A DNA stretch of 34,918 nt from Eubacteriales Family XIII. Incertae Sedis bacterium (GCA_031281765.1 JAITEX010000067.1:1-34918), one strand, 5' to 3'; counted from the first letter of the stretch, positions 5,061 to 22,725 are shown. Notes: generated from the sequence alone by a model not told the origin. Program-made: numbers and translations.

Positions 5061-5315
5061 ATGCCAAGCATTAAACCGGTATCGGATTTGAGAAACTATA
5101 ATGAAGTATTGCGAAATGTGAGCGCCGGCCGTCCAGTTTTTTTGACGAAAAACGGCAGGGGACGGTTTGCGATTATTGATATGGATGATTACGAGAAAAC
5201 GCAAGCGACCATAGCGCTTTTGACCGAGCTTTCGAAAGGAAGAACAAGCGGTGAAGAAAAAGGCTGGATTGCGGCAAGGGATGTTGAGGCCGAATTGGGG
5301 CTGAGCCTTGGCTAA
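5061..5315 (+). CDS. Phd/YefM-family type II antitoxin
   Basis: MPSIKPVSDLRNYNEVLRNVSAGRPVFLTKNGRGRFAIIDMDDYE is a typical Phd/YefM N-terminus. AGGAGG at 5047-5052 favours the ATG at 5061 over the starts at 5052/5055. Confidence 0.8.
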   Translation: MPSIKPVSDLRNYNEVLRNVSAGRPVFLTKNGRGRFAIIDMDDYEKTQATIALLTELSKGRTSGEEKGWIAARDVEAELGLSLG

Positions 5316-5640
5316 GGTAGTTTACTCGCCTGCCGCTCGCGCGGATATGGTTGAAATCAGGAATTATATCCGAGACGAACTTCAAAATCCGGCGGCAGCC
5401 GAACGTGTTCTGACGAGGATTGCAAAATCTTTACGGTTACTTGAGGACGCGCCAAGAATCGGTTCGCCGCTTTCCTCGGTAATTGATATTGATACCGAAT
5501 ATCGATTTCTTATTTCCGGGAACTATTTGTCATTTTATCGATATTATGACGATACCTGTTATATAGACCGCATACTCTATCGTCGGCGCGATTATATATC
5601 GATTCTTTTTGGCATTGACGCAGAGCCGGACGAAACTTGA
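5308..5640 (+). CDS. ParE/RelE-family type II toxin
   Basis: 110 aa. Its TTG start overlaps the antitoxin stop by 8 nt. The sequence (VVYSPAARADMVEIRNYI...RILYRRRDY) fits ParE-like plasmid-stabilisation toxins. Confidence 0.75.
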   Translation: MAKVVYSPAARADMVEIRNYIRDELQNPAAAERVLTRIAKSLRLLEDAPRIGSPLSSVIDIDTEYRFLISGNYLSFYRYYDDTCYIDRILYRRRDYISILFGIDAEPDET

Positions 5641-6222: not shown

Positions 6223-6293
6223 ATGCACAGGGGGACGGTTCCCTTGTGTCGGATTGTATACAATTTAGCACAGCGGAACCGTCCCCTTGTGTT
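6223..6293. repeat. Nested-palindromic repeat element, copy 1 (5' UTR of the aminopeptidase gene)
   Basis: atgcacagggggacggttcccttgtg-tcgga-TTGTATACAA-tttag-cacagcggaaccgtccccttgtgtt. The arms are inverted repeats of each other around a palindromic core. Confidence 0.85.
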
Positions 6294-6306
6294 AAAAAGG
6301 GGAAAT

Positions 6307-8346
6307 ATGGAGAATAATAGAGTGATAATGGGTCGGCTCGCGGCCCTGCGCGACGCGATGCGCGCGGCGGGGCTTGACGCCTACCTCGTCTTCGACGCGG
6401 ATACGGTCGGGAGCGAATCCCCCGCGGAGCGCTTTCTGACGCGCACCTGGCTGACGGGGTTTGACGGCTCGGCCGGCTGCGCCGTTATCACGGCAAACGA
6501 AGCGCGGCTGTGGACGGACGGGCGCTACTGGCTTCAGGCTGAGAAGCAGCTTGCCGGTACGGGCATAGAGCTGATGCGATCGGGCAAAGCCGGCGTACCG
6601 AAGCCGGAAGAATTTTTAGCGGCGGCTCTGCACGCCGGGGATGCGGTCGGCGTCTGCGGGGAGACTTTTCCCGCCGCGGAGTACGACGGGCTTGCGGCGG
6701 CGCTGCAGCCGCAGGGCATAGCGGTACGCGCAACCGAAGATTTGTTTGAGAAACTCTGGACAGTAAACCGGCCGGAGATGCCGACGGGAGAGATATTTTT
6801 GCTGGAGGACGCAGCGCGGGCAAAAGGCGCGGGCGCGGCGACGGGCGCAGAAGATATGCACAGGGGGACGGTTCCCTTGTGCGATTTTGTATACAATTCA
6901 ACACAGCGGAACCGTCCCCCTGTGTTGAACGCGGCGGCGCGAAATCTGGCAGCCGTGCGGGCTGAACTGAAGAAGCGCGGCGCCGACTATGCGCTTATAA
7001 CGGACCTCGCGTCGGTCGCGTGGCTCTTCGGGTTCCGCGGCTCTGACATCCTGTGTACGCCGGTTGCCTACGCGCGCGCCCTCGTATCGCAGAGCGACGC
7101 CATTCTCTTTATCGACAATGCGAAAGTCCCTGCGGATGTCTTGTCAAGCCTGGAGATTGACGGGGTTGCCGTCAGGGATTTCGGAGGCATGGAGCATAGT
7201 CTGCGCGGGCTTGCGCCCGGAACGCGCCTTACCTATGACCCTGATACCGTCAGCGCTGCTCTGCGAAATTCCTTAGCCGCCGACATCACGCGTATTGAAG
7301 CGCCCGACCCCGTCCTGCTCCTCAAGTCCCTGAAGACGGACGAAGAAATTGGGAACCTGCGACGCTGCCACGAACGCGACGGCAGGGTTATGGTGCGTTT
7401 TCTCATATGGCTGGAGGAGTCCGCGGGAAAGATAACCGAATACGACGCGGCCGGTAAGCTGACGGAATTGCGGGCCGAAGACCCGCTCAGCCTCGGGGAT
7501 TCGTTCGAGCCGATATGCGCATATGGCGCGAACGGGGCCATCGTTCATTATCATGCGGAGCCGGACAGCGCCGCGGTAATTGGTGAGAGGACATATGCAC
7601 AGGGGGACGGTTCCCTTGAGCAATTTTGTATACAATTTAACACAGTGGAACCGTCCCCCTGTGTCGGCGGTCGTCGTACGGAGCCGGACAGCGCCGCGGG
7701 ACTCGGCGAGGCGGGGTTCTTTGTGACGGACAGCGGCGGGCAGTATGTGGACGGGACGACGGATATTACGCGGACCGTGCTGTTGGGGGATAGTGGCGAC
7801 AGCGCCCGCCGCGACTATACCCTCGTACTGAAAGCCCATATCGCCCTCGCCTCGGTCGAGTTCCGCCACGGAGTGGCGGGAGCGCATCTCGATGCGCTCC
7901 CGCGGCGCGTCCTCTGGCGCGAAGGCGTAGACTACGCGCACGGTACGGGACACGGCGTCGGGTACGTACTCGGCGTACATGAGACGCCGCCAGGCTTCAC
8001 CTCTTCGGCGAATGCGGGCTCCGGCGCCCGGACGCCCATAGAACCGAATATGGTCTTTTCAAATGAACCCGGTCTCTACCGCGCCGGCGCCTATGGCATT
8101 CGCATCGAAAACCTCGTGACGCCCTACGTTTCGCGGGAAAACGAATTCGGCAGGTTCCTGAAGCTCGAGACCCTCTCGCTCTGCCCCATCGATCTCACGC
8201 CCGTCATTGCTGAAATGCTGACAATAGATGAAATAGAATGGTTGAACGCCTACCACCGCGAAGTCTACGCGCGCCTCGCCCCCGGCCTTACGGAAACGGA
8301 ACGCCGCTGGCTTGCTTCGCGCACCCGCGAAATATCGACCCCTTGA
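6307..8346 (+). CDS. Xaa-Pro aminopeptidase (M24B, aminopeptidase P family) with two in-frame repeat insertions
   Basis: Creatinase-like N-domains plus an M24 catalytic domain (DSGGQY..GTTDITRT, HGTGHGVG, SNEPGLY, IRIEN). ATG at 6307 (MENNRVIMGRL) with RBS AAAGGGGA. The ORF-track start at 6223 lies inside repeat copy 1. Confidence 0.9.
   Translation: MENNRVIMGRLAALRDAMRAAGLDAYLVFDADTVGSESPAERFLTRTWLTGFDGSAGCAVITANEARLWTDGRYWLQAEKQLAGTGIELMRSGKAGVPKPEEFLAAALHAGDAVGVCGETFPAAEYDGLAAALQPQGIAVRATEDLFEKLWTVNRPEMPTGEIFLLEDAARAKGAGAATGAEDMHRGTVPLCDFVYNSTQRNRPPVLNAAARNLAAVRAELKKRGADYALITDLASVAWLFGFRGSDILCTPVAYARALVSQSDAILFIDNAKVPADVLSSLEIDGVAVRDFGGMEHSLRGLAPGTRLTYDPDTVSAALRNSLAADITRIEAPDPVLLLKSLKTDEEIGNLRRCHERDGRVMVRFLIWLEESAGKITEYDAAGKLTELRAEDPLSLGDSFEPICAYGANGAIVHYHAEPDSAAVIGERTYAQGDGSLEQFCIQFNTVEPSPCVGGRRTEPDSAAGLGEAGFFVTDSGGQYVDGTTDITRTVLLGDSGDSARRDYTLVLKAHIALASVEFRHGVAGAHLDALPRRVLWREGVDYAHGTGHGVGYVLGVHETPPGFTSSANAGSGARTPIEPNMVFSNEPGLYRAGAYGIRIENLVTPYVSRENEFGRFLKLETLSLCPIDLTPVIAEMLTIDEIEWLNAYHREVYARLAPGLTETERRWLASRTREISTP
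6856..6926. repeat. Nested-palindromic repeat element, copy 2 (inside the aminopeptidase CDS, translated)
   Basis: atgcacagggggacggttcccttgtg-cgatt-TTGTATACAA-ttcaa-cacagcggaaccgtccccctgtgtt. Translated as MHRGTVPLCDFVYNSTQRNRPPVL. Confidence 0.85.
7556..7699. mobile_element. In-frame insertion module: repeat copy 3 (core 7595-7664) bounded by 21-bp direct repeats
   Basis: cggagccggacagcgccgcgg occurs at 7556-7576 and again at 7679-7699, offset 123 bp = 41 codons. The core atgcacagggggacggttcccttgag-caatt-TTGTATACAA-tttaa-cacagtggaaccgtccccctgtgt lies between them. Confidence 0.75.
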
Positions 8347-8371
8347 CAAATAAAATCCATGCGCGTATAAT
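8343..8371 (+). promoter_or_regulatory. Sigma-A consensus promoter of the NifX-GNAT/ABC/NifDK-like-1 operon
   Basis: TTGACA (8343-8348), 17-nt spacer, TATAAT (8366-8371). The -35 overlaps the aminopeptidase stop codon. Confidence 0.75.
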
Positions 8372-8391
8372 AATTTCATAATACATAGGTA

Positions 8392-8410
8392 ACATATATA
8401 TTTTATATGC
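8392..8410. promoter_or_regulatory. AT-palindrome operator, site A
   Basis: ACATATATA-T-TTTATATGC, 16/18 arm positions matching the palindrome ACATATATA-N-TATATATGT. Starts 21 nt downstream of the -10. Confidence 0.65.
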
Positions 8411-8424
8411 ATTACTGATCGGAC

Positions 8425-8481: not shown

Positions 8482-9339
8482 ATGAGTTACAAAATCGCGT
8501 TTGCAAGTTCTGACGGAATACATATCGATCGCCATTTGGGCGAGGCTAAGACATTGACGATCCTGACAATAGGCGAGACAAAGAGCGTCACGACAGAAGT
8601 TTTGACAACGACGCTTGCGCCGGGCTCCGGAGGACGGGATGCTTCGCATCCCCATGCGCACGCGCACGTCAACCTTGCGCCCCTTTTAGATTGTGAATTT
8701 GTCGTGGCGCAGAAGATCGGACGCGAAATGTCCAAAGCGCTTTTGCGCAACAATATCTCCGCTATTGAACAGACGGGATCCATCGAGGAGGCGGCAACGG
8801 GCATCATCAAATTTAAGGAAACGCAGGAAAGGCGCCGGCATATAAGCAGGGATGACCTTGTCGTGGAAAAGGCGCACCCGCATGAATTGAATCAAATATC
8901 CGCCATCTATGTTCGGGCCCGCGTCAGGATGAACGAAAACGGCATCTACCAGTGGGATGAAAGATACCCGTTCGAAGAGATTACCCGGGCGGACATCAGT
9001 AATGGAAAGCTCTACATCCTCAAATTGAACGACAGGATCATCGGGGCGGCGACCCTTAACGATAGCTTGGAGTTCCCGGACGCGACGGAACTTGAGCAGG
9101 TTTATGTCATCCACCGGTTTTGCATCGACCCCGATTTTCAGAAGCGCGGCTTTGCCCGGCGCTTTCTCTTCTCCCTCTTTGAAATCGCACAAAGGGAGGG
9201 TATACATGAGATACACTTGGCCGTCGCGGAGCAGAACTTCATTGCGATAAGCTCATACCGGAAAGCCGGGTTTCGAAACCTTGAGCGCATGGATACAGGC
9301 GGGTTCGGCTATTTTCTGCATATGGCACGGAAGATATAG
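8482..9339 (+). CDS. Fusion protein: NifX/NifB-C-terminal-like (FeMo-cofactor-binding family) domain + GNAT N-acetyltransferase
   Basis: N-terminal ~115 aa (YKIAFASSDGIHIDRHLGEAKTLTI...VVAQKIGREMSKALLRNNISAIE) resembles the dinitrogenase FeMo-co biosynthesis (NifX/NafY/NifB-C) fold. The C-terminal ~160 aa has GNAT motif A (HRFCIDPDFQKRGFARRFL). One continuous ORF with RBS AGAAGGGAAAG. Confidence 0.8.
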   Translation: MSYKIAFASSDGIHIDRHLGEAKTLTILTIGETKSVTTEVLTTTLAPGSGGRDASHPHAHAHVNLAPLLDCEFVVAQKIGREMSKALLRNNISAIEQTGSIEEAATGIIKFKETQERRRHISRDDLVVEKAHPHELNQISAIYVRARVRMNENGIYQWDERYPFEEITRADISNGKLYILKLNDRIIGAATLNDSLEFPDATELEQVYVIHRFCIDPDFQKRGFARRFLFSLFEIAQREGIHEIHLAVAEQNFIAISSYRKAGFRNLERMDTGGFGYFLHMARKI

Positions 9340-9348
9340 GAGGGCTAC

Positions 9349-10047
9349 ATGGGAGAGAAATATTTTCGGTGGGATTATGTTCTGGATTATTTTCCGAAGC
9401 TGTTTGAAAAGCTTCCGGTCACCTTGTCCATCGTACTGATGGCGACTCTGTTCGGCAGCATTATCGCCGTATTCGTCGCCTTTATACGGCTTGAACGCAT
9501 ACCCGTCCTGAATCAGCTTTGCGTCGTATTTGTCTCCTTTATGCGCAGTACACCCATTATCGTGCAGATGTTTCTGCTTTTCTTCGGCTCTGTGATGATC
9601 TTCAACACTCTGTTCGGCATCAATATCATCACCTATAACAAAATCTGGTTTGTCTACGCAGCCTATGCGCTGAATCTGAGCGGGTTCATGGCCGAAATAT
9701 TCCGCGGCGCCATCCTCGGCGTCCCGAAAAAACAGATGGACGCAGCTATCTCTGTCGGCCATAACAGGCGTCAAGCGTATCTGCATATCATCATTCCGCA
9801 GGCGGCCGTCATCGCGTTGCCCACACTCGGTTATACGATTGTCGCGTTGCTGCAGGACTCAACGCTGGCTTTCACCTTCGGCATCATCGATGTCATCGGG
9901 GCAATCAACGGAGTGTCCGCCTCTACGGGCCACAAGCTCGAAGGCTACTTCGACGCCGCCTTTATGTTCGCTATACTCGCGATCCTCGTTGAGAAACTGT
10001 TCGGATTCTTGGAGAAAAAAACAACCCACCAGTCGAGAATCACATGA
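9349..10047 (+). CDS. Polar amino-acid ABC transporter permease (His/Glu/Gln/Arg/cystine-type)
   Basis: 232 aa, multi-TM, with an EAA-like loop (MAEIFRGAILGVPKKQMDAAISVG). RBS AGGAGGG 9 nt after the preceding stop. Confidence 0.9.
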   Translation: MGEKYFRWDYVLDYFPKLFEKLPVTLSIVLMATLFGSIIAVFVAFIRLERIPVLNQLCVVFVSFMRSTPIIVQMFLLFFGSVMIFNTLFGINIITYNKIWFVYAAYALNLSGFMAEIFRGAILGVPKKQMDAAISVGHNRRQAYLHIIIPQAAVIALPTLGYTIVALLQDSTLAFTFGIIDVIGAINGVSASTGHKLEGYFDAAFMFAILAILVEKLFGFLEKKTTHQSRIT

Positions 10048-10110
10048 CCGCAACCCGGAGTGTGTCTCAAATATATGAAGTTGCGTTTTATTGAAAGAAA
10101 GGAAAGTATC

Positions 10111-10944
10111 ATGAAAACGAAAATAACGAAAATTCTCATTGGCCTGCTGACGCTGAGTCTGTTGTTTGCTGTCGGCTGTTCAAAGTCGAACGACAAGGAC
10201 AGCGGCGAGGCAACCGACGGAGAAAAGACGAAGCTGATCGTCAGTTCGCAGCCGGGCGAGTACCCCCCGCTTATCTACGTGAATGAAAACGGGGAAAATG
10301 ACGGCATAGACTTCCGCATAATCAAGGCTTTGCAGGAGGAATTGCCACAGTACGAATTCGAAGTCGTTGCGCAGGATATGGCGACGACGCTGACCGCGCT
10401 CGATTCAGGAACAGTGGATGTGGGGCTCTGCATGTTCGAGTACAATGAACAGCGCGCCGAGAAATACGTCTACTCCGATGTCGGCTATATGGAATACGGT
10501 CAGTACATCGTCGTGCCGAAGGGCAATCCCCTCGGTATCAAGTCGCTCGACGATCTGGGCGGCAAACGCGTCAGCACCTACCCGTCATCCAATACCGCGT
10601 TTATTCTCGAGGATTATAACGCAAATCACCCGGACAACCAGATAGAGATCGTCTATGTGGCCGCAACGGACGCAATCCGCAAGGGCCTGCAAAGCGGAGA
10701 TACGGACGCGACGCTTTCGACCAAATGGGGCGTTGATCTGGAAGTTGCGCAGTTTGGCGACTATGAGGAGATTGCGGGCGAATCCATCTGGCCAGGCCAG
10801 GCCTATGTCCTCTTCCCGCGCACAAACGAAAACAAGCAAGTACAAGCGGACGTGAACGCCGCGCTCAAACGGCTTGTCGATTCCGGAGAAGCGCAGCGCA
10901 TCTACGACAACCTGCTTGAGGAATGGAAGGCGACCTTGAAATAG
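10111..10944 (+). CDS. Amino-acid ABC transporter substrate-binding lipoprotein (PBP type 3 family)
   Basis: Signal peptide with lipobox LLFAVGC. ATG at 10111 (MKTKITKIL) with RBS GAAAGGAAAG preferred over 10060. Periplasmic-binding-protein-like sequence. Confidence 0.85.
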   Translation: MKTKITKILIGLLTLSLLFAVGCSKSNDKDSGEATDGEKTKLIVSSQPGEYPPLIYVNENGENDGIDFRIIKALQEELPQYEFEVVAQDMATTLTALDSGTVDVGLCMFEYNEQRAEKYVYSDVGYMEYGQYIVVPKGNPLGIKSLDDLGGKRVSTYPSSNTAFILEDYNANHPDNQIEIVYVAATDAIRKGLQSGDTDATLSTKWGVDLEVAQFGDYEEIAGESIWPGQAYVLFPRTNENKQVQADVNAALKRLVDSGEAQRIYDNLLEEWKATLK

Positions 10945-10968
10945 GCGGAGCCGGAAAGCGAAGGGACT

Positions 10969-11682
10969 ATGTCAACCGTATTTGATTTTGATTTTTTTAT
11001 AGAATGCCTTAAGTCGGGCGCGGCGCGGATTCCGGTAAATCTTTACGTGGCCGCGGCGTCGGTATTCTTCGGAATGATATTCGGACTCATTATCGCGCTC
11101 ATACGGGTATTCCGGGTGCCGGTGCTGTCACCGATTTTCCGCTGGCTGGTCACCATACTAAAGGGCGTTCCTGTCATTCTTATGTTGCTCGTCTTCTATG
11201 TTCTCGCAGCGGATTACTTCAATTTAATTATGGAGTATTTCGGAATCGACTACACCTTTCGTCAGTTGAACAAGGCGATTATCGCTATAATCGCCTTGTC
11301 CGTCCTTTCATCCATAGGGCTTTCCGAGTCCTTCCGCGGCGCGCTCGCATCGGTGAAGAAGGGACAGTATGACGCGGCCTATTCCGTCTGGCTTACGAAG
11401 CGGCAGGCCCTCGTTTACGTCATTATACCGCAGGCCTTCCCTATCGCCGTACCGACGCTCTGCAATTATATTATCGGGATGATCAAGGCCGGCGCGCTCG
11501 CCGCTATGATTTCGGTTGTAGACATCATGAACGGCGCGCTCATCCCTGCCAACGCGAACTATCGATACCTCGAAGGGTACACGGCAGCCGCGTTGATTTA
11601 TTGGGTTGTTTGCGCGACGCTCGAAAAGGTATTGAATATCGCGGAAAAACGTTTCGCGAGCAAAGTAAGGGAGGTTGCTTAA
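10969..11682 (+). CDS. Polar amino-acid ABC transporter permease (second subunit)
   Basis: 237 aa, multi-TM, with an EAA-like loop (LSESFRGALASVKKGQYDAAYSV). Confidence 0.9.
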   Translation: MSTVFDFDFFIECLKSGAARIPVNLYVAAASVFFGMIFGLIIALIRVFRVPVLSPIFRWLVTILKGVPVILMLLVFYVLAADYFNLIMEYFGIDYTFRQLNKAIIAIIALSVLSSIGLSESFRGALASVKKGQYDAAYSVWLTKRQALVYVIIPQAFPIAVPTLCNYIIGMIKAGALAAMISVVDIMNGALIPANANYRYLEGYTAAALIYWVVCATLEKVLNIAEKRFASKVREVA

Positions 11683-12440
11683 TGATAGAGGTAAAGGGGC
11701 TGAAAAAGGCCTTTGGGCAAAACCAGGTACTCAAAGGGGTGGGCTTCCACGTCAATGAAGGGGATGTTATGACGCTGCTCGGCGTGAGCGGTTCGGGGAA
11801 AACGACGCTCATTCGTTGCCTGAATTATTTGGAGAGCCCCGACGAAGGGGTGATCCGCATCGATGACCGGACGGTGGACGCGCAGAAAATCACCAAGAAG
11901 GAAATCATCGAACTGCGGAAAAAGACCGCTATGGTTTTCCAGACCTACGACTTGTTCCTGAACCTGAACGCCCTGCAAAATGTTACGGAAGGGCTTATCC
12001 GGGGCGGCAAAATCCCGAAGCCGGACGCGGAGGATATTGCGCGTGATTTGCTTGAAAAAGTGGGGCTGTCCGCAAAATTGGAAAGCAAGCCCTATCAGCT
12101 TTCGGGCGGCGAACAGCAGCGTGTCGGGATAGCGCGCGCGCTCGCGCTCTGCCCTAAGGTCATCCTGTTTGACGAGCCGACTTCGGCGCTGGACCCGGAG
12201 GTGATCGGCGAGATATTGGATATTATCAAGGCGGTGGCGCGGAGCGGCGTTACCATGATTATCGTGACGCACGAGATGGAATTCGCGTTTAGCGTTTCCA
12301 ATAAGGTAGTCTTTATCGATCAGGGGGAAATCGTGGAGGAAGGGTCGCCGCGCGAGGTATTTCTGGAATCCAGTCAGGAACGCACGAAATCCTTCTTAGC
12401 CCGGTCGAATTTCCGGTTCCAACCGGAATATTATTTGTAA
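11682..12440 (+). CDS. Amino-acid ABC transporter ATP-binding protein
   Basis: Walker A GVSGSGKTT, signature LSGGEQQRVGIARAL, Walker B ILFDEPTSALD. The ATG at 11682 overlaps the permease stop (TAATG). The ORF-track start at 11601 is rejected. Confidence 0.92.
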   Translation: MIEVKGLKKAFGQNQVLKGVGFHVNEGDVMTLLGVSGSGKTTLIRCLNYLESPDEGVIRIDDRTVDAQKITKKEIIELRKKTAMVFQTYDLFLNLNALQNVTEGLIRGGKIPKPDAEDIARDLLEKVGLSAKLESKPYQLSGGEQQRVGIARALALCPKVILFDEPTSALDPEVIGEILDIIKAVARSGVTMIIVTHEMEFAFSVSNKVVFIDQGEIVEEGSPREVFLESSQERTKSFLARSNFRFQPEYYL

Positions 12441-12452
12441 AGGAGTAGCAAC

Positions 12453-13949
12453 ATGGGTACAATCAACATCGATGCCGGCACGGTCCCTATCCGGGAAACG
12501 CGGTTAGGCTCCATAACGGGGTATTATGGCGACCTGGAGGATCTGTCGACCAAGTCCTCCTGCGGGAATTTGAAGAACAGGGAACGCTGCTTCAGCCAAT
12601 GCAGCCTCTGCCTGAATATGTGTTCCATCGGGGAGTTCACCTCGCTGCGCGATGTGGCGGTCATCAACCACGCGCCCGCCGGGTGCAATGCGGGCTCCGC
12701 AGCCACCAAGGTGTTTGCCAAACAGATAGCGGAACGCATCGGCAAGGAGTATAATTCCGTGCTGGTCGGAACTGACCTCAATGAGAGTGACACCGTATTC
12801 GGCGCCACAGAATCGCTCCCGGACATCGTCCGACAGGTATATGAGAATTATCGTCCGAGCGCTATAGTAATCGCCTCCTCCTGCGTAAGCGGCGTCATAG
12901 GCGAGGACATCGAAAGCGTCACGAGCGAATTGGACAGACAATACGACATACCCATCTTCCCGATACAGTGTGAAGGCTTCCGCTCAAAGATTTGGCAGTC
13001 GGGCGCGGACATCGCCGACCACGCCTTTGTCAAATACATTGTCAAACCGCCGCAGGAGAAACGCAATGTAATCAATTTCAAGAACTTCTTTGAAAGCGAG
13101 CGTCAGCAGATCACGGAGATTTTTGCGGAGCTGGGTGTGACGCCCCAATTCCTCTATCTCAATTCCACGATTGAGGAGGTCGAACATCTTTCGGAATCCC
13201 TTGCGACGGTCAGCATCTGCGGCACGCTTGGCACCTATCTCGGCAACGCCCTCGAAGAACTTTACGGCGTACCTTATATCCGCAGCCTCAACCCGAACGG
13301 CATCACGGGATTCGAAAGCTGGCTTCGCGAGATAGGCAAAAAGATAGGGAAAAGCGCGGAGGTTGAGAACTATCTCACGCGTGAGAAGGCCAAGTATATC
13401 GATAAAATCGAGGAAGTGAAGGACGAACTGAAGGGGCTGACCGCCGTCATCGGCATGGGCCCCGGCTATGCTTTCGATGTGGGACGCGTTTTGCAGGAAT
13501 TGGGGCTTGAAATCATCTGGACGACTGCCTGGCACCTTGACTATCGTTACGACAACGGGGAAATGCCGACGTCCTTGCGCTATATGACGGAACACTCCGC
13601 AAATAATTTCGGCGTAAGCGTAGCGGATCAGCAGAATTTCGAGATAATGCATACGCTGAAGACGTTGAAGCCGGATGTCTATTTCTCGCGCCATCCGGGA
13701 ACCACGGTATGGGCGGTCAAACAAGGCATTGCATCCGTATTCGTCGCGGATGAGTATACGATATTCGGGTATCGCGGCACCTTGAATTTTGCCAATATGA
13801 TACTTGACGCGGTGCGCAACCGCAGTTTTGAACAGAACCTTGCCGCGCGGACGAAGCTGCCGTACACGGACTGGTGGTACGAGCAGAACAATCAGGCGAT
13901 GCTTTTGAATGAGGGCGAAACCAGACTGCGCGAGGCGGCGGCCCACTAG
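12453..13949 (+). CDS. Nitrogenase component-1 alpha-like subunit (NifD/NifE-like), paralog 1
   Basis: NHAPAGC, ASSCVSGVIGEDIESV and IQCEGFRSK parallel NifD HGPVGC, SECPIGLIGDDIESV and VRCEGFRG. VSICGTLGTY parallels the cofactor-Cys segment LVHCYRSMNY. RBS AAGGAG. Confidence 0.85.
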   Translation: MGTINIDAGTVPIRETRLGSITGYYGDLEDLSTKSSCGNLKNRERCFSQCSLCLNMCSIGEFTSLRDVAVINHAPAGCNAGSAATKVFAKQIAERIGKEYNSVLVGTDLNESDTVFGATESLPDIVRQVYENYRPSAIVIASSCVSGVIGEDIESVTSELDRQYDIPIFPIQCEGFRSKIWQSGADIADHAFVKYIVKPPQEKRNVINFKNFFESERQQITEIFAELGVTPQFLYLNSTIEEVEHLSESLATVSICGTLGTYLGNALEELYGVPYIRSLNPNGITGFESWLREIGKKIGKSAEVENYLTREKAKYIDKIEEVKDELKGLTAVIGMGPGYAFDVGRVLQELGLEIIWTTAWHLDYRYDNGEMPTSLRYMTEHSANNFGVSVADQQNFEIMHTLKTLKPDVYFSRHPGTTVWAVKQGIASVFVADEYTIFGYRGTLNFANMILDAVRNRSFEQNLAARTKLPYTDWWYEQNNQAMLLNEGETRLREAAAH

Positions 13950-13969
13950 CGGGGGAGGAAGAGGCAAAT

Positions 13970-15277
13970 ATGGCACAGATATTGGATCAACCGAGATATA
14001 AATGCGCTCTTGCGGCAATGCAGACCGTACACGCCATTCCGCGGGCCATACCCATCCTGCACGCGGGTCCGGGGTGCGGCACGAAACTGAACGACAATAC
14101 CGGCATCTCAGGGTATTATTCACCGAATATATTTCCGAGCACGAATATCGGCGAAAAGGAGGTGGTCTTCGGTGGCGAGGGCAAACTGCGAACCACCATC
14201 GAAAACGCGCTGAAAATAATTGACGCCGACCTCTTTGTTGTGCTGACCGGCTGCACGGCCGAGATCATAGGGGATGACGCCGAAGAAATCGTACACGAAT
14301 TTGCGGACGCGGGGAAGCGCGTCATCTACGTGAACACCCCCGGGTTCAAGGGGTCGAATTATCAAGGGCACGATTGGGTACTGACCGCCCTTTTCGAGCA
14401 GTATCTACCGCGCGAACGCGTCCCCGTAAACGCGAAGCAGGTGAACATATTCCCGGGGCCTCCGGTGCAGGATCCCTTTTGGCACGGCAACCTGAAGGAG
14501 CTGGAATCCCTGTTCCGCGAAATCGGCCTTGAGCCGAATATCATCTTCGGCTATGGCAACGGCGTTTCGGCCGTCGACCGCATACCGGCAGGCGCTTTCA
14601 ATATCCTCGTCTCGCCGTGGGTCGGCCTGGACAGCGTCAAGGTCCTCGAAAAGAAATACGGGACGCCGTACCTGCATTATCCCGTGCTGCCGATCGGCGC
14701 GACGGAGACGAGCAAGTTCCTCCGCGCCGTAGGGAAATTCACGAAGGTTGACGAGCTTCATGTCGAGCGCGTCATCGCCGAACATGAGAAGGAATATTAT
14801 TACTTTATCGAACGCTATTCGGATACCTTTCTCGAGCTGAGGATACTCTCCAAACGCTTCGTCGTCATATCCGACGCGCAGTACGCGATTGCCGCGACAA
14901 AGTTCCTCGTCAACGACCTCGGCTGGAACCCGGGCGGTACGCAGTTCGTTACGGACAACACGCCGGAGGAATACCGCGAAAGCGTCCGCTCCGAATTTGA
15001 AAAGCTCAATTACGGCATCAAGGCGTCGATGGAATTTTCGACAAACGGGTTTGAGATACAAAAGAAGATCAGGGAATCCGGATTTACCGCGCCGCCGATG
15101 ATCTTCGGCAGCAGTTGGGATAAGAGCTTCGCAAAGGAGATATATGCCCCCTTCCTGAACATCTCCTATCCTACGTATGACCGGCTCATCATCAACAGCG
15201 GCGTGGTCGGCTACGCCGGCGGCCTTAAGTTCCTGGAAGACATTTATACCACGGCGGTGCAGTCGCTTATTCTGTAA
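13970..15277 (+). CDS. Nitrogenase component-1 beta-like subunit (NifK/NifN-like), paralog 1
   Basis: YKCALAAM, HAGPGCG and LTGCTAEIIGDD parallel the three NifK P-cluster Cys motifs (ACQPLGA, HGSQGC, TTCMAEVIGDD). RBS GGGGGAGGAAGAGG. Confidence 0.85.
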   Translation: MAQILDQPRYKCALAAMQTVHAIPRAIPILHAGPGCGTKLNDNTGISGYYSPNIFPSTNIGEKEVVFGGEGKLRTTIENALKIIDADLFVVLTGCTAEIIGDDAEEIVHEFADAGKRVIYVNTPGFKGSNYQGHDWVLTALFEQYLPRERVPVNAKQVNIFPGPPVQDPFWHGNLKELESLFREIGLEPNIIFGYGNGVSAVDRIPAGAFNILVSPWVGLDSVKVLEKKYGTPYLHYPVLPIGATETSKFLRAVGKFTKVDELHVERVIAEHEKEYYYFIERYSDTFLELRILSKRFVVISDAQYAIAATKFLVNDLGWNPGGTQFVTDNTPEEYRESVRSEFEKLNYGIKASMEFSTNGFEIQKKIRESGFTAPPMIFGSSWDKSFAKEIYAPFLNISYPTYDRLIINSGVVGYAGGLKFLEDIYTTAVQSLIL

Positions 15278-15343: not shown

Positions 15344-15394
15344 GCGTATAAGAACGCGGTATAAATAACAGGCATGCCCGCGCGGGAGTACGCT

Positions 15395-15964
15395 ATGAGC
15401 AAAAAAGAGGAAATTATCGGGACGACCATCGATCTGTTCAAACGTGAAGGCTGTGAAAACGCGACGATACAGCGGATTTGCGAGGTCAACAAAATCACGA
15501 AAGGTACGTTCTATTATCATTTCAAGTCCAAGGGCGATCTTATCTATGCCTTCTTTGAATTGCAGGGCAACAGTATCCTGAGTATCTTCCCTCACATTGT
15601 AGCGGAGACCGACGACAGGAAGAAGATATGGATCGCCTACGAGTTTTGGCTCGATATGATGCTGCAGCTCGGGGAAAAATTGCTCCACGGCCTCTTTGTT
15701 TTCGAATATGAGAACGGTTTCGATTTCTTCTCGCCCTACCCGCGCATCCCCCGCGGCAACCTGCCCGACCCCTATAATATGATTATTGAACTTATCAAAA
15801 GCGCGCAGGCGTCCGGCGCTATTCGCAACAACGCGCCGCATGAACGCCTTATCATCACCCTGAACGCCATGATGACCACCATCCTGATGGATTGGTCCGC
15901 AGGCGGCCGCGACTACGATCCGAAAGAGGAAATACGCGCGGGGTTCGACGCTATTCTCAATTAA
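15395..15964 (+). CDS. TetR/AcrR-family transcriptional regulator
   Basis: N-terminal HTH: IIGTTIDLFKREGCENATIQRICEVNKITKGTFYYHFKSKGDL. ATG at 15395 with GGGAG RBS preferred over 15374. Confidence 0.88.
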   Translation: MSKKEEIIGTTIDLFKREGCENATIQRICEVNKITKGTFYYHFKSKGDLIYAFFELQGNSILSIFPHIVAETDDRKKIWIAYEFWLDMMLQLGEKLLHGLFVFEYENGFDFFSPYPRIPRGNLPDPYNMIIELIKSAQASGAIRNNAPHERLIITLNAMMTTILMDWSAGGRDYDPKEEIRAGFDAILN

Positions 15965-16000: not shown

Positions 16001-16030
16001 TTGACAAGGATAGTTGGCATGTGGTATAAT
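16001..16030 (+). promoter_or_regulatory. Sigma-A promoter of the NifH-like gene (extended -10)
   Basis: TTGACA (16001-16006), 18-nt spacer, TGgTATAAT (16022-16030). Confidence 0.75.
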
Positions 16031-16031
16031 T

Positions 16032-16058
16032 ACATATATCATATATATGATATATATG
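16032..16058. promoter_or_regulatory. AT-palindrome operator, site B (two overlapping copies)
   Basis: ACATATATC-A-TATATATGA (16032-16050) overlaps CATATATAT-G-ATATATATG (16040-16058). Directly abuts the -10. Confidence 0.65.
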
Positions 16059-16085
16059 CAATATTCCATAAAGAAAGGGACAACT

Positions 16086-16976
16086 ATGGCGAAAAACGGC
16101 AAAGCGATCAAGCAGATTGCGATTTACGGCAAAGGGGGTATCGGCAAATCGACCACCACCTCGAACCTGAGCGCGGCATTGGCCGATCTCGGCTATAAGG
16201 TCATGCAATTCGGGTGTGACCCGAAAGCGGACTCCACGAATACCTTACGGGACGGTTCATATATTCCTACCGTGTTGGAACTATTGCGGGACCGGGGCAG
16301 CGTAAACGCCCACGACGCGATTTTTGTGGGATACAACGGCATATACTGCGTGGAGGCCGGCGGCCCGGCGCCCGGCGTGGGGTGCGCGGGGCGCGGTATC
16401 ATCACCGCGGTGCAATTGCTGAAAGAACAGGATATTTTCGAAGAACTCGATTTGGACTATGTGATCTACGACGTCCTCGGCGACGTTGTCTGCGGCGGCT
16501 TCGCGGTGCCCATCCGGGAGGGTATTGCGCAGCACGTCTTTACGGTTTCGTCCTCGGATTTTATGGCCATATACGCCGCCAACAATCTGTTCAAGGGCAT
16601 CCAGAAATATTCGAACTCGGGAGGCGCCCTCCTCGGCGGCATTATCGCGAACTCCGTTTCACCCGAATCCAATTATCAGCGATCCATTATCGACGATTTC
16701 GCCGCACGGACAAGCACGCAGATCATGCAATATATCCCCCGTTCCGTTACGGTGACCCAGAGCGAACTTTCGGGAAAGACGACCATAGAGGCCGCGCCGG
16801 ATTCCGCTCAGGCCAAGGTGTACCGCGAACTCGCGCGCCGCATCGACGAGCATGTCGACTCCAAGACGCCAACGCCTTTGGAACCTTCGCAATTGCGCGA
16901 CTGGGCCGCAGAATGGTCCGACCAGATACTCGCCATCGAAACCGGCGAGGTCCGCACGGAAGCGGCCAACATCTAA
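16086..16976 (+). CDS. NifH-like ATPase / Fe-protein (nitrogenase iron protein family)
   Basis: [18 protein letters not shown] (Walker A), GCDPKADST (switch I), and [4Fe-4S] Cys in [12 protein letters not shown] and [17 protein letters not shown] at 16086 with RBS AAAGGGA. Confidence 0.92.
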
Positions 16977-17021: not shown

Positions 17022-18389
17022 CTACAGGCTCAATTTTCTGCGGAAGGTCCGGGCGATAAGGCAGAGGCTGATAAGGCAGGTTGCCGTCTCCGCAACCGGA
17101 AAGCAGTACCAGACATAGCGCGGTTCAAACACCCGCCACAACAGTAAGGCGGCCGGGATGATGAATACGAGCTGTCTGAGCGAGGATATGATAAACGACA
17201 CAAACCCCACTCCGATAGATTGATAAAAGTTGGCTGTCATAATGGAAACCCCGGACATCGCGAAGGATATGCTGATGACGCGGAGCGCAAACGCCCCTAT
17301 CTCGTTGAGGTTCGCGGACGCGTGGAAAAGGCTCATGATCTCCTGCGGGAACATCTGCGTAAGCGCCGTCCCCACGAGCATAGCCGTTACGGAAGATACC
17401 ATCGCGAGAATAAATGTCTTGCGGACGCGCGGGATATTACGCGCCCCGTAATTGAAGCTGATAATAGGCAGGGCTCCCTGCCCTATTCCAAAGACGGGCG
17501 TAATGATTATCGTCTGCAGGCGATAATATATGCCGAGAACCGCCACGGCTGTCACCGAATACGCCATGAGAATAGCGTTCATCAAGAGTGACGATAGCGA
17601 CGAGATCCCATACATGAAGATGGAAGGCGCCCCGACTCTATAGATGTCCTTAATAATGGGGAAGTTGAAGCGCAGCGTACGCAGGGCAAAGCTCACATCA
17701 CTTTTCGCGCGCGCGAGCAGGATGAGGCCGAGCGCGGCCGCCGAGCACTGCCCTATCACCGTAGCCGTAGCCGAGCCGGCGATCCCGAGCGCGGGGAAGC
17801 CGAACTTCCCGAAAATAAGGATGGGATTGAGAACGATGTTGATGACCGTCCCGACGATGTTAAATATAAGCGGCTGATAGACGAGCCCCACCGATTGCAA
17901 AATCCTCTCGATATTGAACTGGAAGAAGGCGCCGAGGGAGCCGACCGTCGTGATAGTGCAAAACACCGACGCAAGGGACAGCAGCTCGGGGTCGTCGGTG
18001 AGCAGATGCAGAAACGGCATGGTGAGGAGGATGCCGAAGGCCGCGAAAACCAACCAGCTTGCTATGACAAGCAGGTACGCCTGATTGGCGACCGCCGAAA
18101 CCTTTTCCCTGTTCTTCTCCCCGTAGGAGCGGGCCATCAGGGAACCGACGCCAACGCCGGTCCCCGCGGCGATCGCCATGAGAAACATCGGGATGGGGAA
18201 AACGAGCGTCGTCGCAGCCAACGCTTTCTCGGAGATGCGCGCCACGAAGATGCTGTCCACGATATGGTAGACGGATTGGGCCGTCATGGTAACGATGGGC
18301 GGTATCGACATCGCCGCGAGCAAGCGCCCGACGGGTCTGGTTCCTAACTTCTCACTTCCCGGCTCAACGCCGCCCATCTTACCGGCCAT
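17022..18389 (-). CDS. MATE-family efflux transporter
   Basis: 455 aa, ~12 predicted TM segments, with a typical MATE N-terminus (RLLAAMSIPPIVTMTAQSVYHIVDSIFVARI). The start codon lies 2 nt after the NifK-like-2 stop. Confidence 0.88.
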   Translation of the reverse strand: MAGKMGGVEPGSEKLGTRPVGRLLAAMSIPPIVTMTAQSVYHIVDSIFVARISEKALAATTLVFPIPMFLMAIAAGTGVGVGSLMARSYGEKNREKVSAVANQAYLLVIASWLVFAAFGILLTMPFLHLLTDDPELLSLASVFCTITTVGSLGAFFQFNIERILQSVGLVYQPLIFNIVGTVINIVLNPILIFGKFGFPALGIAGSATATVIGQCSAAALGLILLARAKSDVSFALRTLRFNFPIIKDIYRVGAPSIFMYGISSLSSLLMNAILMAYSVTAVAVLGIYYRLQTIIITPVFGIGQGALPIISFNYGARNIPRVRKTFILAMVSSVTAMLVGTALTQMFPQEIMSLFHASANLNEIGAFALRVISISFAMSGVSIMTANFYQSIGVGFVSFIISSLRQLVFIIPAALLLWRVFEPRYVWYCFPVAETATCLISLCLIARTFRRKLSL

Positions 18390-18391: not shown

Positions 18392-19678
18392 TTACAGATT
18401 GTTGAACAGGTCCTCAACGAGGGTTATCGCGCCGCGGTATCCGCTATAGGTGCGGTTGAGAATCAGCTGGTCGGTGATGGGATACGCCGCAACGAATATC
18501 TGCGCGTCACGATTGAAGGCGATTTCCCGTTCCAATGAACTGCCGACAAACAGCGAGACGTCGTTATACTCGTCGAGGGCCCGGCCCACATCGTAATTAT
18601 CGGTGGCAAAGACGACATCCGGCCCTTTGACATATTCGAGATCCTGTATCCGGTCCCGTATAGCCGCCTTATCCGCTTCGCGTGACACCGGTTCGGTCAC
18701 CACGGTGACCACCGGGGTGAACCCGAGGTCGTTCGCGAGCGCGTGCGTCATGCCTATCGCCACATTGGCGTCCCCGATGACGGCGAATTTCTTCCACGAC
18801 AGAGCGCCGATGGCCGTTTCGTAATAATTATAGACGTAAGACTCCTCCTCGTAGATGACATCCTCGACGAGTTTGCCGTCTATAGCAAGCGCGTCCGCAA
18901 CCTGCCGGACGAGGCGCGTCGTATCGGTCGCGCCGACCGGCAGCCCCGGGAAACGGAGGCTCGGCACGCCGAACCTCTTTTCAAATTTCCTTGCCTCGCC
19001 TTGCAGGAGCCACGGATTGACTATGACGTTCAGCGCCGCCGCGCCGGCATTTTTTATATGTTCAATGCCCTGGCCGTGCGAGAAGAAGGTATTCACCTCC
19101 AGACCGAGCTTGGAAAAGATGCGCACTAATTCCTCAAACGTGCCCGCCCAATAGGGGTCATGATAGGGGAAGATGCCGAGCAGGTTGATGAGATTGGCCT
19201 GCCTGGGCCGCCCCGGCTCCACGAGCTGGCTCAGGAAGGTGGATATGGTCGTTTCGTATCCGAGGTTGCTGTCCCCCGCAAACCCCGGCGTGGGGATGTT
19301 ATAGACCGGGAAGCCTTCCGCGCGGAACCCCTTCGCCACCGTCTCCGTATCATCGCCGATAATGCCCGATGTGCAGCCGTTGAGGATGAAGTAGGCGTCC
19401 GCGTCGATAATGTCGATACTGCCGCGAATCGTATCGGTGAGTTTTTCAATGCCGCCAAACACCACCTCGCGTTCGAGCATAAGCGAGCAGGGAAGGGACA
19501 CGCTCGAGAGGAAATGCGGCGACTTGAGTCCCGCCTGCCCCGCTTCCCCCGCGCTGGTCTGGAGTCCGCATCCGGGTCCCGAATGAAAGATCGGGCAGAA
19601 TTTGTTGACGGCTGACAGGGTGCTGTTGATGCCGCCGAGTACGCAGCTGCCCCGGGGGTTCTCGGTAACGATGGACAT
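18392..19678 (-). CDS. Nitrogenase component-1 beta-like subunit (NifK/NifN-like), paralog 2
   Basis: GSCVLGG, HSGPGCG and LNGCTSGIIGDD give all three NifK-type P-cluster Cys motifs. The start lies 1 nt after the NifD-like-2 stop. Confidence 0.85.
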   Translation of the reverse strand: MSIVTENPRGSCVLGGINSTLSAVNKFCPIFHSGPGCGLQTSAGEAGQAGLKSPHFLSSVSLPCSLMLEREVVFGGIEKLTDTIRGSIDIIDADAYFILNGCTSGIIGDDTETVAKGFRAEGFPVYNIPTPGFAGDSNLGYETTISTFLSQLVEPGRPRQANLINLLGIFPYHDPYWAGTFEELVRIFSKLGLEVNTFFSHGQGIEHIKNAGAAALNVIVNPWLLQGEARKFEKRFGVPSLRFPGLPVGATDTTRLVRQVADALAIDGKLVEDVIYEEESYVYNYYETAIGALSWKKFAVIGDANVAIGMTHALANDLGFTPVVTVVTEPVSREADKAAIRDRIQDLEYVKGPDVVFATDNYDVGRALDEYNDVSLFVGSSLEREIAFNRDAQIFVAAYPITDQLILNRTYSGYRGAITLVEDLFNNL

Positions 19679-21131: not shown

Positions 21132-21175
21132 CTTTCTCCTCCCATACATCCGTCTCCGTCAATATAGCCTAATTA

Positions 21176-21194
21176 ACATATATGAATATCTGAG
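21176..21194. promoter_or_regulatory. AT-palindrome operator, site E (degenerate, one strong half-site)
   Basis: Plus strand ACATATATG-AATATCTGA. It lies at about +5 to +24 relative to the minus-strand promoter of the NifDK-like-2 operon. Confidence 0.45.
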
Positions 21195-21198
21195 TTTT

Positions 21199-21227
21199 AT
21201 TATATGGTGAATTGAACTATATGTCAA
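21199..21227 (-). promoter_or_regulatory. Sigma-A consensus promoter of the NifDK-like-2/MATE operon
   Basis: Minus strand reads TTGACA (21227-21222), 17-nt spacer, TATAAT (21204-21199). Confidence 0.75.
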
Positions 21228-21277
21228 TATAATATGAACTATAGTATAAAATTTATTTGCGTATATAAATTTTTATA

Positions 21278-21306
21278 TTGACAAGAGTAAAGGAGAGGCA
21301 TATAAT
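21278..21306 (+). promoter_or_regulatory. Sigma-A consensus promoter of the NifB-like/NifX-like operon
   Basis: TTGACA (21278-21283), 17-nt spacer, TATAAT (21301-21306). Divergent from the promoter at 21199-21227. Confidence 0.75.
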
Positions 21307-21318
21307 AATACTTATTAA

Positions 21319-21337
21319 ACATATATATTATATATGT
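21319..21337. promoter_or_regulatory. AT-palindrome operator, site C (perfect 9-1-9 palindrome)
   Basis: ACATATATA-T-TATATATGT. Starts 13 nt after the -10. Confidence 0.7.
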
Positions 21338-21398
21338 ATTTGCTGACCTGCCAGAAATTTGGCTCTCAGCTTGTAGATACCGCGCCGAAACGGATGCG

Positions 21399-22301: not shown

Positions 22302-22327
22302 GCTGCCTGAAACGGAAGGTGACATTT

Positions 22328-22678
22328 ATGGCATATAGAGCTGCCTTTGCAACGAGCGACGGATTGACCGTTTACAAACACTTCGGACAAGCGAACGAAT
22401 ATCTCGTCGCCGACATCCTGGAAGACCATTATGAAATCGTAGCTCGCAGAAACGTAGTCCCTCCCTGCAACGCCCGCGGGCACTCGGAAGCGGCGTTCGA
22501 CGCGGTACTTGACGCCTTATCCGACTGTGAAGCCATTTTCGTCGGCAAGGTCGGAGTGGGAGCTGCGGAATACATCGCAAGCCGGGGTATAAACGTATTT
22601 GAAACCCCGGGTGTGATCGATGAGATTTTTTTAAAACAAAAATCGCAGGCGCCTCTTGATAAAAAACGGGATATATGA
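22328..22678 (+). CDS. NifX/NifB-C-terminal-like FeMo-cofactor-binding family protein
   Basis: MAYRAAFATSDGLTVYKHFGQANEYLV...IFVGKVGVGAAEYIASRGINVFE. ATG at 22328 with RBS GGAAGGTGA preferred over 22298. Confidence 0.8.
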   Translation: MAYRAAFATSDGLTVYKHFGQANEYLVADILEDHYEIVARRNVVPPCNARGHSEAAFDAVLDALSDCEAIFVGKVGVGAAEYIASRGINVFETPGVIDEIFLKQKSQAPLDKKRDI

Positions 22679-22684
22679 TATTAT
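22656..22684 (+). promoter_or_regulatory. Promoter of the yezD-like gene (extended -10)
   Basis: TTGATA (22656-22661), 17-nt spacer, TGaTATTAT (22676-22684). Embedded in the 3' end of the NifX-like gene. Confidence 0.6.
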
Positions 22685-22703
22685 ACATATATGTTATATA
22701 TGT
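22685..22703. promoter_or_regulatory. AT-palindrome operator, site D
   Basis: ACATATATG-T-TATATATGT (17/18 arm positions). Directly abuts the -10. Confidence 0.65.
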
Positions 22704-22725
22704 AATAGGGTGATAGGTAGAGCCG

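Follow-up and report, generated by a model that had tools for sequence, protein, structure and literature searches.

The DNA analysed here, referred to as the window, is the complete 34,918-nucleotide stretch of an Eubacteriales Family XIII. Incertae Sedis bacterium (GCA_031281765.1 JAITEX010000067.1:1-34918), and its central feature is a nitrogenase-like (NFL) reductase system encoded together with an amino-acid importer. Seven co-directional genes occupy positions 8482-15277 on the plus strand and form a single tightly packed operon, the spacings being, in order, 9, 63, 24, -4, 12 and 20 nt; the ATG of the ATPase gene (11679) overlaps the stop codon of the second permease gene by 4 nt. They are preceded by a sigma-70-type consensus promoter (TTGACA-N17-TATAAT, 8343-8371, plus strand), which matches at 12 of the 12 hexamer positions. 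Based on Pfam and NCBIfam matches the first gene (8482-9339) encodes a fusion of a NifX-like Nitro_FeMo-Co domain and a GNAT domain. It is followed by genes for ABC permease 1 (9349-10047), a lipoprotein substrate-binding protein (SBP; 10111-10944) assigned by Pfam and Protein Data Bank (PDB) matches to SBP_bac_3 and the TcyJ/TcyK subfamily, ABC permease 2 (10969-11682) and an ABC ATPase (11679-12440); both permeases are BPD_transp_1 proteins of the polar amino-acid type. The last two genes specify Oxidored_nitro proteins, a Group IV nitrogenase-like NifD (NifD#1, 12453-13949) and a NifK-like protein (NifK#1, 13970-15277). A sequence-only reading of this DNA had placed a GNAT, a four-component polar amino-acid ABC importer and a NifDK-like enzyme in one operon, and all of these are present. 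The GNAT domain itself (Acetyltransf_1) was correctly recognized, but it is not a lone gene; it is the C-terminal half of the NifX-type fusion.

The likeness of the importer to the Bacillus TcyJKLMN system, proposed in the same reading, was borne out by homology. The top solved relatives of the SBP are Listeria TcyK (Lmo2349, 4gvo; 99.5 bits) and B. subtilis YtmK/TcyK (2o1m; 95 bits), with an identity to both of 27-28% over about 228 residues; its lipobox is LFAVGC. The two permeases (best NCBIfam match, cystine permease) and the ATPase (best match, TcyN) all find their best matches in the cystine system, below the NCBIfam equivalog cut-offs; for the ATPase against TcyN the score was 282 bits, the cut-off being 406. 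The SBPs encoded in the operons of relatives are 42-47% identical to TcyK. A metal-transport reading of the ABC system, following Dos Santos et al. (2012), was rejected, since the SBP belongs to the family-3 amino-acid binders and is of the TcyK type.

The best solved relative of NifD#1, and of a second NifD-like protein encoded further downstream (NifD#2), is MarD of R. rubrum (9FMG/9D9U, of which 9FMG is the R. rubrum Mar structure, PMC12552129), with 298 and 222 bits, respectively; the best PDB match of NifD#1 is 9fmg_A. NifK#1 matches MarK (9d9u_C/9fmg) with 349 bits. Mar cuts thioether C-S bonds anaerobically by means of P- and [Fe8S9C]-clusters (PMC12552129). Like Mar, the system has the parts of a two-component ATP-dependent reductase in a sulfur-metabolism context, including a near-orthologue of MarH. 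This Fe protein of the NifH family (16086-16976, plus strand, ATG at 16086) scored 495.7 bits against MarH (9fmg_D) versus 285 bits against the best canonical NifH, and it carries the Walker A motif, both [4Fe-4S] cluster cysteines and a CGGFA motif aligned with that of MarH. As in Mar, six P-cluster cysteines are present, three in NifD#1 (at the MarD C66, C91 and TSC positions) and three in NifK#1, which has no other cysteines and in which all three align with the MarK ligands. NifD#1 also retains the Cys270/His429 pair that holds the [Fe8S9C] (L-type) cluster in Mar. The NifB homologue (21399-22301, plus strand; Radical_SAM and TIGR01290 nifB, the latter with 234 bits across positions 9-290 of a 441-position profile) is a MarB-like cofactor maturase without a NifX domain, and a stand-alone NifX-like cofactor carrier is encoded at 22298-22678 on the same strand (profile matches). 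Here more than one DK pair shares a single H gene, a single B gene and a NifX, a situation also known from R. palustris (bioRxiv 10.64898/2026.08.20.746119).

Identity to MarD is 33% for NifD#1 and 29% for NifD#2, and 28% between the two, whereas MarD1, MarD2 and NflD3 of R. palustris are mutually 52-65% identical. The residues common to Mar, Mar1 and Mar2 near the cofactor are H194, W195, S196, F199, F374 and H375 (bioRxiv 10.64898/2026.08.20.746119). Of these, W195 and H375 are kept in NifD#1, while H194 is replaced by I, S196 by Q, F199 by A and F374 by W; the Mar channel residues M70, C73, Y98 and I101 also differ. A third NifDK paralogue, found in some related Clostridium genomes (L060:18092-20369, L061:14540-16248 and L071:16464-17954; L numbers denote related loci), is nearer to MarD, with 44% identity. 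Given the low identities, the changed cofactor residues and this closer paralogue, NifD#1 and NifD#2 are, judged by their sequences, two separate uncharacterised Group IV clades with Mar-type H and B proteins and not Mar orthologues. A further difference is that Mar acts on volatile substrates, whereas here the genes of an amino-acid importer form part of the same transcript. In some Clostridium genomes as many as three NFL catalytic pairs lie in one neighbourhood.

Residues ~172-186 of NifD#1 form the stretch CEGF(R/K)S(K/R)IWQSG(A/N)D, which the window shares with the relatives nearest to it (identity of 66% or more), while IWASGFD stands at the same place in 92 of the roughly 107 clade members that were scored; the main NifD#1 clade thus has A at the S196 position and retains F199. 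Because the signature positions match MarD S196 and F199 beside the cofactor, the sub-lineage with IWQSG(A/N)D may act on another substrate. There is no tie between the signature and the GNAT fusion, as locus L001 combines the signature with a plain NifX.

NifD#2 (19680-21149) and NifK#2 (18392-19678, profile matches) are encoded on the minus strand in an operon whose last gene, for a MATE efflux transporter (17022-18389), starts 2 nt past the end of nifK2. NifD#2 keeps the P-cluster cysteines and the equivalent of Cys270, and has an extra cysteine in GCxGC and another in KICASG, the latter shared by most members of its clade. It differs from Mar in the complete loss of His429, which is missing clade-wide through a 4-residue deletion; W195, F374 and H375 are likewise lacking throughout the clade. 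An invariant 'GIPTTH' histidine aligns with nitrogenase alpha-His442 ('GIPFRQMH'), the alignments to MoFe NifD being weak. NifD#2K#2 may be a second catalyst, co-transcribed with the MATE exporter, or an EN-like scaffold. This nitrogenase-type histidine and the varied chemistry of the nitrogenase superfamily would be compatible with a function unrelated to sulfur, such as the reduction of N2 or nitrogen oxides proposed for Nfa, or the reductive conversion of a non-sulfur amino acid or opine. The marks of a true nitrogenase or Nfa were not found, as the window contains no NifEN, NifV or PII genes and the positions of nitrogenase Q191 and H195 are not conserved; moreover, the neighbours, riboswitches and T-boxes described below all point to cysteine and methionine. 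A function outside sulfur metabolism is considered extremely unlikely.

The NifD#1 clade includes more than 1000 homologues with 58-70% identity in Clostridia, Spirochaetes, Fibrobacter, Sodalis and Brenneria. In a scan of species-representative genomes relatives were detected in 435 genomes; 80 loci were fetched and 82 non-redundant loci were analysed, in which open reading frames (ORFs) were called and labelled with the window proteins, and the remainder clustered. Within 8 kb of 82 NifD#1-clade genes, the neighbours were a Tcy-like importer (39%), a CysK-like pyridoxal phosphate (PLP) enzyme (39%), a PatB-family C-S lyase (32%; 411 bits, cut-off 340), an Ssu-like importer (21%), a Cys/Met PLP enzyme (17%), an Rrf2 regulator (12%), a YxeP-type M20 amidohydrolase (11%) and a LysR regulator (11%). 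The NifD#2 clade (n=18) has a Tcy-like importer nearby in 72%. The recurrence of PatB, CysK-like and Cys/Met PLP enzymes, Rrf2 and LysR beside the NifDK clade agrees with the proposed association with cysteine and methionine genes, and YezD, which the sequence-only reading had associated with sulfur-assimilation neighbourhoods, was found in at least 14 related loci.

The Tcy-like importer directly adjoins NifD1K1 or NifD2K2 in 29 of the 82 loci, in both Bacillota and Spirochaetota. It lies directly upstream of NifD1K1 in 17 loci and directly upstream of NifD2K2, with NifD1K1 usually next, in 10; in 4 it lies directly downstream of NifD1K1. Importer and enzyme might be linked by co-regulation only, with an ordinary cystine/cysteine importer, or one supplying sulfur for cluster assembly, next to an NFL enzyme that acts on a freely diffusing substrate, for example volatile sulfides. 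Mar substrates need no importer, sulfur-starvation genes often cluster, the NifH of the window is very near to MarH, and the ABC linkage was taken as cofactor supply by Dos Santos et al. 2012 (PMC3464626). The translationally tight coupling between importer and NifDK, however, is seen repeatedly, in two phyla, with the genes in several orders and with importers of different types, a pattern typical of substrate supply; in addition, the Mar active-site residues are not conserved, and in some of the same genomes the closer MarD-like paralogue (44% identity) coexists. Co-regulation without a shared substrate is therefore regarded as quite unlikely.

One of these other importer types was observed at L085:1137-9837, where, downstream of a NifD1K1 pair 70% identical to that of the window, the Tcy-like importer is replaced by a peptide importer of the Opp/Dpp type (SBP_bac_5 with two permeases and two ATPases), which hints that some members take peptide-bound substrates, e.g. 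gamma-glutamyl or glutathione conjugates. In the enterobacterium Brenneria izadpanahii (L003, CP050854, 4615-13881) the NifD1K1 pair, 60% identical, stands alone; a few kb upstream of it are an insertion-sequence (IS) transposase and ccdAB, downstream there is a PALP (CysK-like) fragment of 67 residues, and neither nifH nor nifB was found within 10 kb of the pair. This copy looks horizontally acquired and possibly decaying.

The minimal module conserved in Treponema and rumen genomes consists of Rrf2, PatB, NifK1-NifD1, CysK and LysR without an importer. It would fit a scheme of sulfur scavenging in which a PatB-type lyase first frees a thiol (e.g. methanethiol) from a thioether amino acid, the NFL enzyme then reductively desulfurises the thiol, giving a hydrocarbon and H2S, and the sulfide is built into cysteine by the CysK-like enzyme. 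The CysK-like neighbour is as frequent as the importer (39% each), and Mar2 of R. palustris is needed with ethanedithiol as sulfur source (bioRxiv 10.64898/2026.08.20.746119). Neither PatB nor CysK is encoded in the window, however, where the importer is co-transcribed directly with NifD1K1, as in 17 relatives, and CysK may serve as a CymR-type co-regulator instead of a sulfide trap (bioRxiv 10.1101/2021.09.07.459368). On balance, prior release of the thiol by PatB is thought unlikely, although it deserves consideration.

The recurrence near NifDK of Ssu/Tau-like importers (NMT1 SBP with an SsuC-like permease), Fe-alcohol dehydrogenases and aminotransferase-fold genes brings a different substrate class into consideration, namely a sulfonate or oxidised organosulfur compound (cysteate, taurine or isethionate-like) cleaved to sulfite as by isethionate reductase. 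The precedent is IsrBHDK of Rhodobacter capsulatus (Group IV-F), which resembles the present system as an NFL enzyme for anaerobic sulfur assimilation with a neighbouring ABC importer, and for which the adjacent importer is needed for growth on the substrate of the enzyme (PMC11423573). In IsrDK, by contrast, the Cys/His pair and most of the P-cluster cysteines are missing; IsrB does not resemble NifB, and the transporter belongs to the Ssu type (PMC13474568). The reduced Isr-type set of cysteines (one in D, three in K) without Cys270/His429 was not matched here, where NifD#1 keeps the full P-cluster and Cys/His ligands, the maturase is NifB-like and the importer of the operon is of the Tcy and not of the Ssu type. 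The 'aminotransferase' neighbour proved to be the PatB C-S lyase, and no sulfite reductase recurs among the neighbours. A sulfonate substrate is accordingly very unlikely.

Sulfur-responsive RNA elements were sought by Rfam scans of 37 related loci. In several Clostridium species the genes are arranged as SBP-M20-SBP-permease-permease-ATPase-NifD2K2-NifD1K1-NifB-YezD, and an S-adenosylmethionine (SAM) riboswitch lies directly ahead of the first SBP of this long operon in C. acidisoli (L039:248-355) and C. akagii (L050:1854-1961). Further SAM riboswitches precede YezD in C. arbusti (L056), the third NFL paralogue in C. luticellarii (L061), and PatB-FeADH (Fe-alcohol dehydrogenase) in L065. T-box leaders with the specifier GAA-UGC-A, i.e. 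cysteine, lie ahead of YezD in two Clostridium genomes (L060, L069), and in L060 the third NifDK paralogue lies behind the Cys T-box and YezD. In these relatives, therefore, genes of the system respond to SAM and to uncharged tRNA-Cys. The expectation that the cluster responds to sulfur limitation thus agrees with the control elements of the Clostridium relatives, but no sulfur-sensing element was seen in the window, in which the Rfam scan detected no riboswitch or T-box. In C. beijerinckii the nitrogenase-like genes Cbei_0620/0621, possible members of the same clade, were down-regulated with the adjacent cysteine synthase, metC and mccA (bioRxiv 10.1101/2024.02.27.582317).

What the present operon has in common with the snaA-tcyJKLMN-cmo-sndA operon of Bacillus is a leading GNAT, an SBP of the TcyK family, a pair of permeases and an ATPase resembling TcyN (PMC6323116; PMC10863075). 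To these, relatives add two SBPs and a YxeP/SndA-type M20 within the importer operon, as well as Rrf2, LysR and CysK, and the resemblance to a tcyJ-sndA-tcyKLMN layout is closer in the Clostridium relatives than in the window. Flavin enzymes of the CmoO/CmoJ or YxeK kind were found neither in the window genes nor among the recurrent neighbours; instead of a flavin monooxygenase/reductase, nitrogenase-like reductases stand in that place. The M20 hydrolase and CymR are also absent from the window, and the GNAT is fused to a NifX domain. The missing deacetylase had been seen as weakening the analogy. Its absence from the window was confirmed, but in 13 related loci a YxeP-type M20 (TIGR01891 above cut-off, 239 bits to B. 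subtilis YxeP, 1ysj) was found, including inside importer operons. An upstream M24 peptidase (6223-8346) was dismissed as a replacement deacylase, as it precedes the operon promoter and is not recurrent in relatives. The yxe operon for S-(2-succino)cysteine (YxeL, YxeK or 2SL lyase, YxeP) offers a similar logic of acetylation, cleavage and deacetylation with an adjacent Tcy-like importer, the difference being that cleavage here would fall to a metallocluster reductase driven by ATP. This logic is documented for Bacillus (PMC9706529, PMC10863075, PMC6323116), and the exchange of YxeK for 2SL lyase is a precedent for the non-orthologous swap of the C-S-cleaving enzyme in such clusters (PMC9706529).

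In the fusion protein the NifX-type Nitro_FeMo-Co domain covers amino acids 12-107 and the GNAT domain amino acids ~150-283 (Acetyltransf_1, E 1e-14, residues 156-264); the best named matches of the latter are generic (RimI, PaiA, unnamed GNATs). The NifX half carries a His-rich insert, HPHAHAH, within a His/Ala-rich stretch at residues ~45-65, RDASHPHAHAHVNL, which was not seen in the plain NifX of the window and could be a metal or cluster ligand. A model of the fusion protein built with AlphaFold2 without an alignment had a predicted local distance difference test (pLDDT) score of 34 and was unusable. Among 5.8 billion clustered proteins a single relative of the fusion was detected (P0002, 77% identity, same gene order), and no other NifX-GNAT fusion was present among the best 150 matches of an exhaustive search of 1.84 billion representatives. 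Other two-domain matches taken as candidates were in fact GNAT-GNAT or NifX-NifX tandems. In about ten related loci a plain nifX lies at the equivalent place, directly upstream of NifD1, and GNATs of any kind accounted for 3 of 105 small unlabelled neighbour ORFs of relatives. With plain nifX in relatives and only one other fusion found, the GNAT is a recent acquisition specific to this lineage. That it is joined to a protein carrying the reductase cofactor argues that it works with the reductase system. N-acetylation of the imported compound is the simplest guess for its step, by analogy with the published acetylate-cleave-deacetylate rule for S-substituted cysteines (PMC9706529, PMC10863075). 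As a general feature of the system the N-acetylation step is not supported, the GNAT-NifX fusion having been found only in the window and its 77%-identical relative.

Taken together, the TcyK-type importer, the YxeP-type deacylase, PatB, the CysK-like enzyme and the SAM-riboswitch and Cys-T-box context narrow the search for the substrate to cysteine-derived compounds. The probable function of the system, held with moderate confidence, is to cleave reductively, at the expense of ATP, a C-S bond in an imported organosulfur compound derived from cysteine, and so to serve sulfur assimilation under anoxic conditions. In this proposal the TcyJKLMN-like importer would take up a cysteine-derived (S-substituted or otherwise modified) amino acid, the role of substrate supplier being suggested by the Isr importer (PMC11423573). 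The MarH-like Fe protein would deliver low-potential electrons, driven by ATP, to a NifD#1/NifK#1 heterotetramer, and these would pass via the P-cluster to an L-type [Fe8S9C]-like cluster, which would be built by the MarB-like radical-SAM enzyme and carried by the NifX domains. NifD#1/NifK#1 would then reductively break the C-S bond, freeing a thiol, sulfide or cysteine for cysteine and methionine synthesis; in relatives the sulfur product could enter this synthesis through CysK-like, PatB and MetY-like enzymes. The reductase would thus occupy the place of the O2-dependent CmoO/CmoJ or YxeK of the Bacillus pathways. In this lineage the NifX-fused GNAT probably N-acetylates the imported amino acid or the product, as SnaA and YxeL do, and NifDK#2 with the MATE exporter could form a second C-S reductase with another substrate, or a scaffold. 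More tentatively, both clades might be oxygen-free counterparts of CmoO/CmoJ and YxeK, dealkylating or desulfurising imported S-substituted cysteines with ATP and nitrogenase-type clusters; S-methylcysteine, for example, would yield cysteine and methane, or alanine and methanethiol. This narrower proposal is possible but doubtful.

Several points weigh against reductive cleavage of an imported cysteine derivative. Many S-substituted cysteines can already be split by PLP-dependent C-S lyases in the absence of oxygen, which makes it less than obvious why a reductase with a high ATP demand would be needed. In about 60% of the NifD#1-clade loci no Tcy-like importer is within reach, partly because of short contigs. 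With only 27-28% identity to TcyK the window SBP appears to be a diverged Tcy member, and its ligand could differ from cystine-like compounds. The distance of NifD#1 and NifD#2 from MarD and from each other, together with the altered active-site and channel residues of NifD#1, means that the chemistry may differ from that of Mar. The GNAT is non-conserved, giving no blast match in 83 related loci, and any link to SnaA or YxeL is conjectural. Among the window genes there is no riboswitch, T-box, Rrf2, CysK, PatB or M20, and the regulatory features are confined to TetR- and MarR-type regulators and an AT-rich palindrome. For this NFL clade the proposal draws on sequence and genetic context.

Besides the operon, the window contains parts that had not been described in the sequence-only reading, namely the NifX half of the fusion, the MarH-like nifH, nifDK#2 with the MATE gene, and the MarB-like radical-SAM gene with nifX. 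A YezD/DUF2292 small protein free of cysteine and methionine is encoded at 22726-22905 on the plus strand (PF10055, 67 bits, cut-off 22); it is a distant relative of the NCBIfam sulfur-starvation protein OscA (27 bits, below cut-off). Downstream of it lie a MarR gene and then two ABC exporters. The Cys+Met content is 1.8% in the SBP, 1.4% in NifK#1, 1.6% in NifK#2 and 0% in YezD, which lends weak support to a sulfur role.

The genes appear to be connected by a shared AT-rich palindrome resembling an operator. In front of the importer-NifDK operon the motif, AACATATATA...TATATGCA, lies at 8389-8414, just 3' of the -10 hexamer. Its octamers ACATATAT/ATATATGT have eight exact copies in the 35-kb window (at 8392, 16032, 21176, 21319/21330 and 22685-22696), all in five promoter regions, those of the importer-NifDK operon, nifH, the nifDK#2-MATE operon, nifB-nifX and YezD. 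The corresponding palindromes span 8389-8414, 16030-16062, 21173-21190, 21316-21342 and 22680-22710. Allowing one mismatch in the 10-mer, 10 matches were obtained versus 1.3 expected. The copies ahead of nifH follow a second consensus promoter (TTGACA-N18-TATAAT, 16001-16030) as a triple AT palindrome, the whole region extending over 16001-16062 on the plus strand; three copies lie in the divergent promoter region between nifD2 and nifB (21170-21345), and the motif at 22680-22710 precedes the YezD gene. The occurrence of the palindrome at these five promoters and nowhere else in the window supports the claim that YezD belongs to the same regulon. A candidate binder is the TetR-family regulator encoded at 15374-15964 on the plus strand (family match), though the MarR-type protein of the window or some other regulator may bind it instead; TetR genes also adjoin the NifDK genes of the closest relatives, L001 and L086, at whose promoters the palindrome was not found.

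About 5 kb past the cluster, at 27609-29073, lie split genes for coenzyme A (CoA) biosynthesis (a CoaC-like flavoprotein on the plus strand and a CoaB-like DFP domain on the minus strand). TcyJKLMN of B. subtilis was recently found to import cysteinopantetheine for CoA salvage (bioRxiv 10.1101/2024.04.17.589903); the nearness of the CoA genes to the cluster is probably coincidental. Upstream, between clpB and a glyoxalase gene, a ParE-family toxin (5308-5640) and a DUF4143/AAA_14 ATPase (849-2147) are encoded, which are unrelated to sulfur salvage.

Nitrogenase-like genes beside O-acetylhomoserine sulfhydrylase or cysteine synthase, and beside ABC transporters read as metal supply, were reported by Dos Santos et al. 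2012, who also noted that four DK genes are linked in Syntrophobotulus and proposed that one pair could act as a scaffold (PMC3464626). According to a 2026 review, Groups IV-A, B, C and F have been assigned and the other clades in Group IV are without an assigned function, the finding of which is among the greatest challenges of the field, and their genetic context has given little more than a vague link to sulfur (PMC13474568). In the literature no paper was found that connects a TcyJKLMN-type importer, a YxeP-type deacylase, PatB, S-box/Cys-T-box control or S-alkylcysteines with these clades, and none that links nitrogenase to S-methylcysteine. An NFL sulfur-salvage system with an amino-acid importer is thus put forward as a well-founded and testable hypothesis, not as a demonstrated function. 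Cultured carriers include Clostridium akagii, C. acidisoli, C. puniceum, C. aminobutyricum, Treponema primitia and T. bryantii.

Several hundred species of anaerobes from the gut, the rumen, termites and sediments carry the two clades. If the hypothesis is true, it would extend nitrogenase-cofactor chemistry to amino-acid thioethers and add a new enzymatic reaction and a new route of sulfur nutrition in anaerobes. In aerobes S-alkylcysteines are degraded by oxygenases, and the hypothesis would account for the recovery of their sulfur by strict anaerobes; it would also point to a possible unrecognised biological source of methane and short hydrocarbons from dietary and xenobiotic cysteine conjugates.

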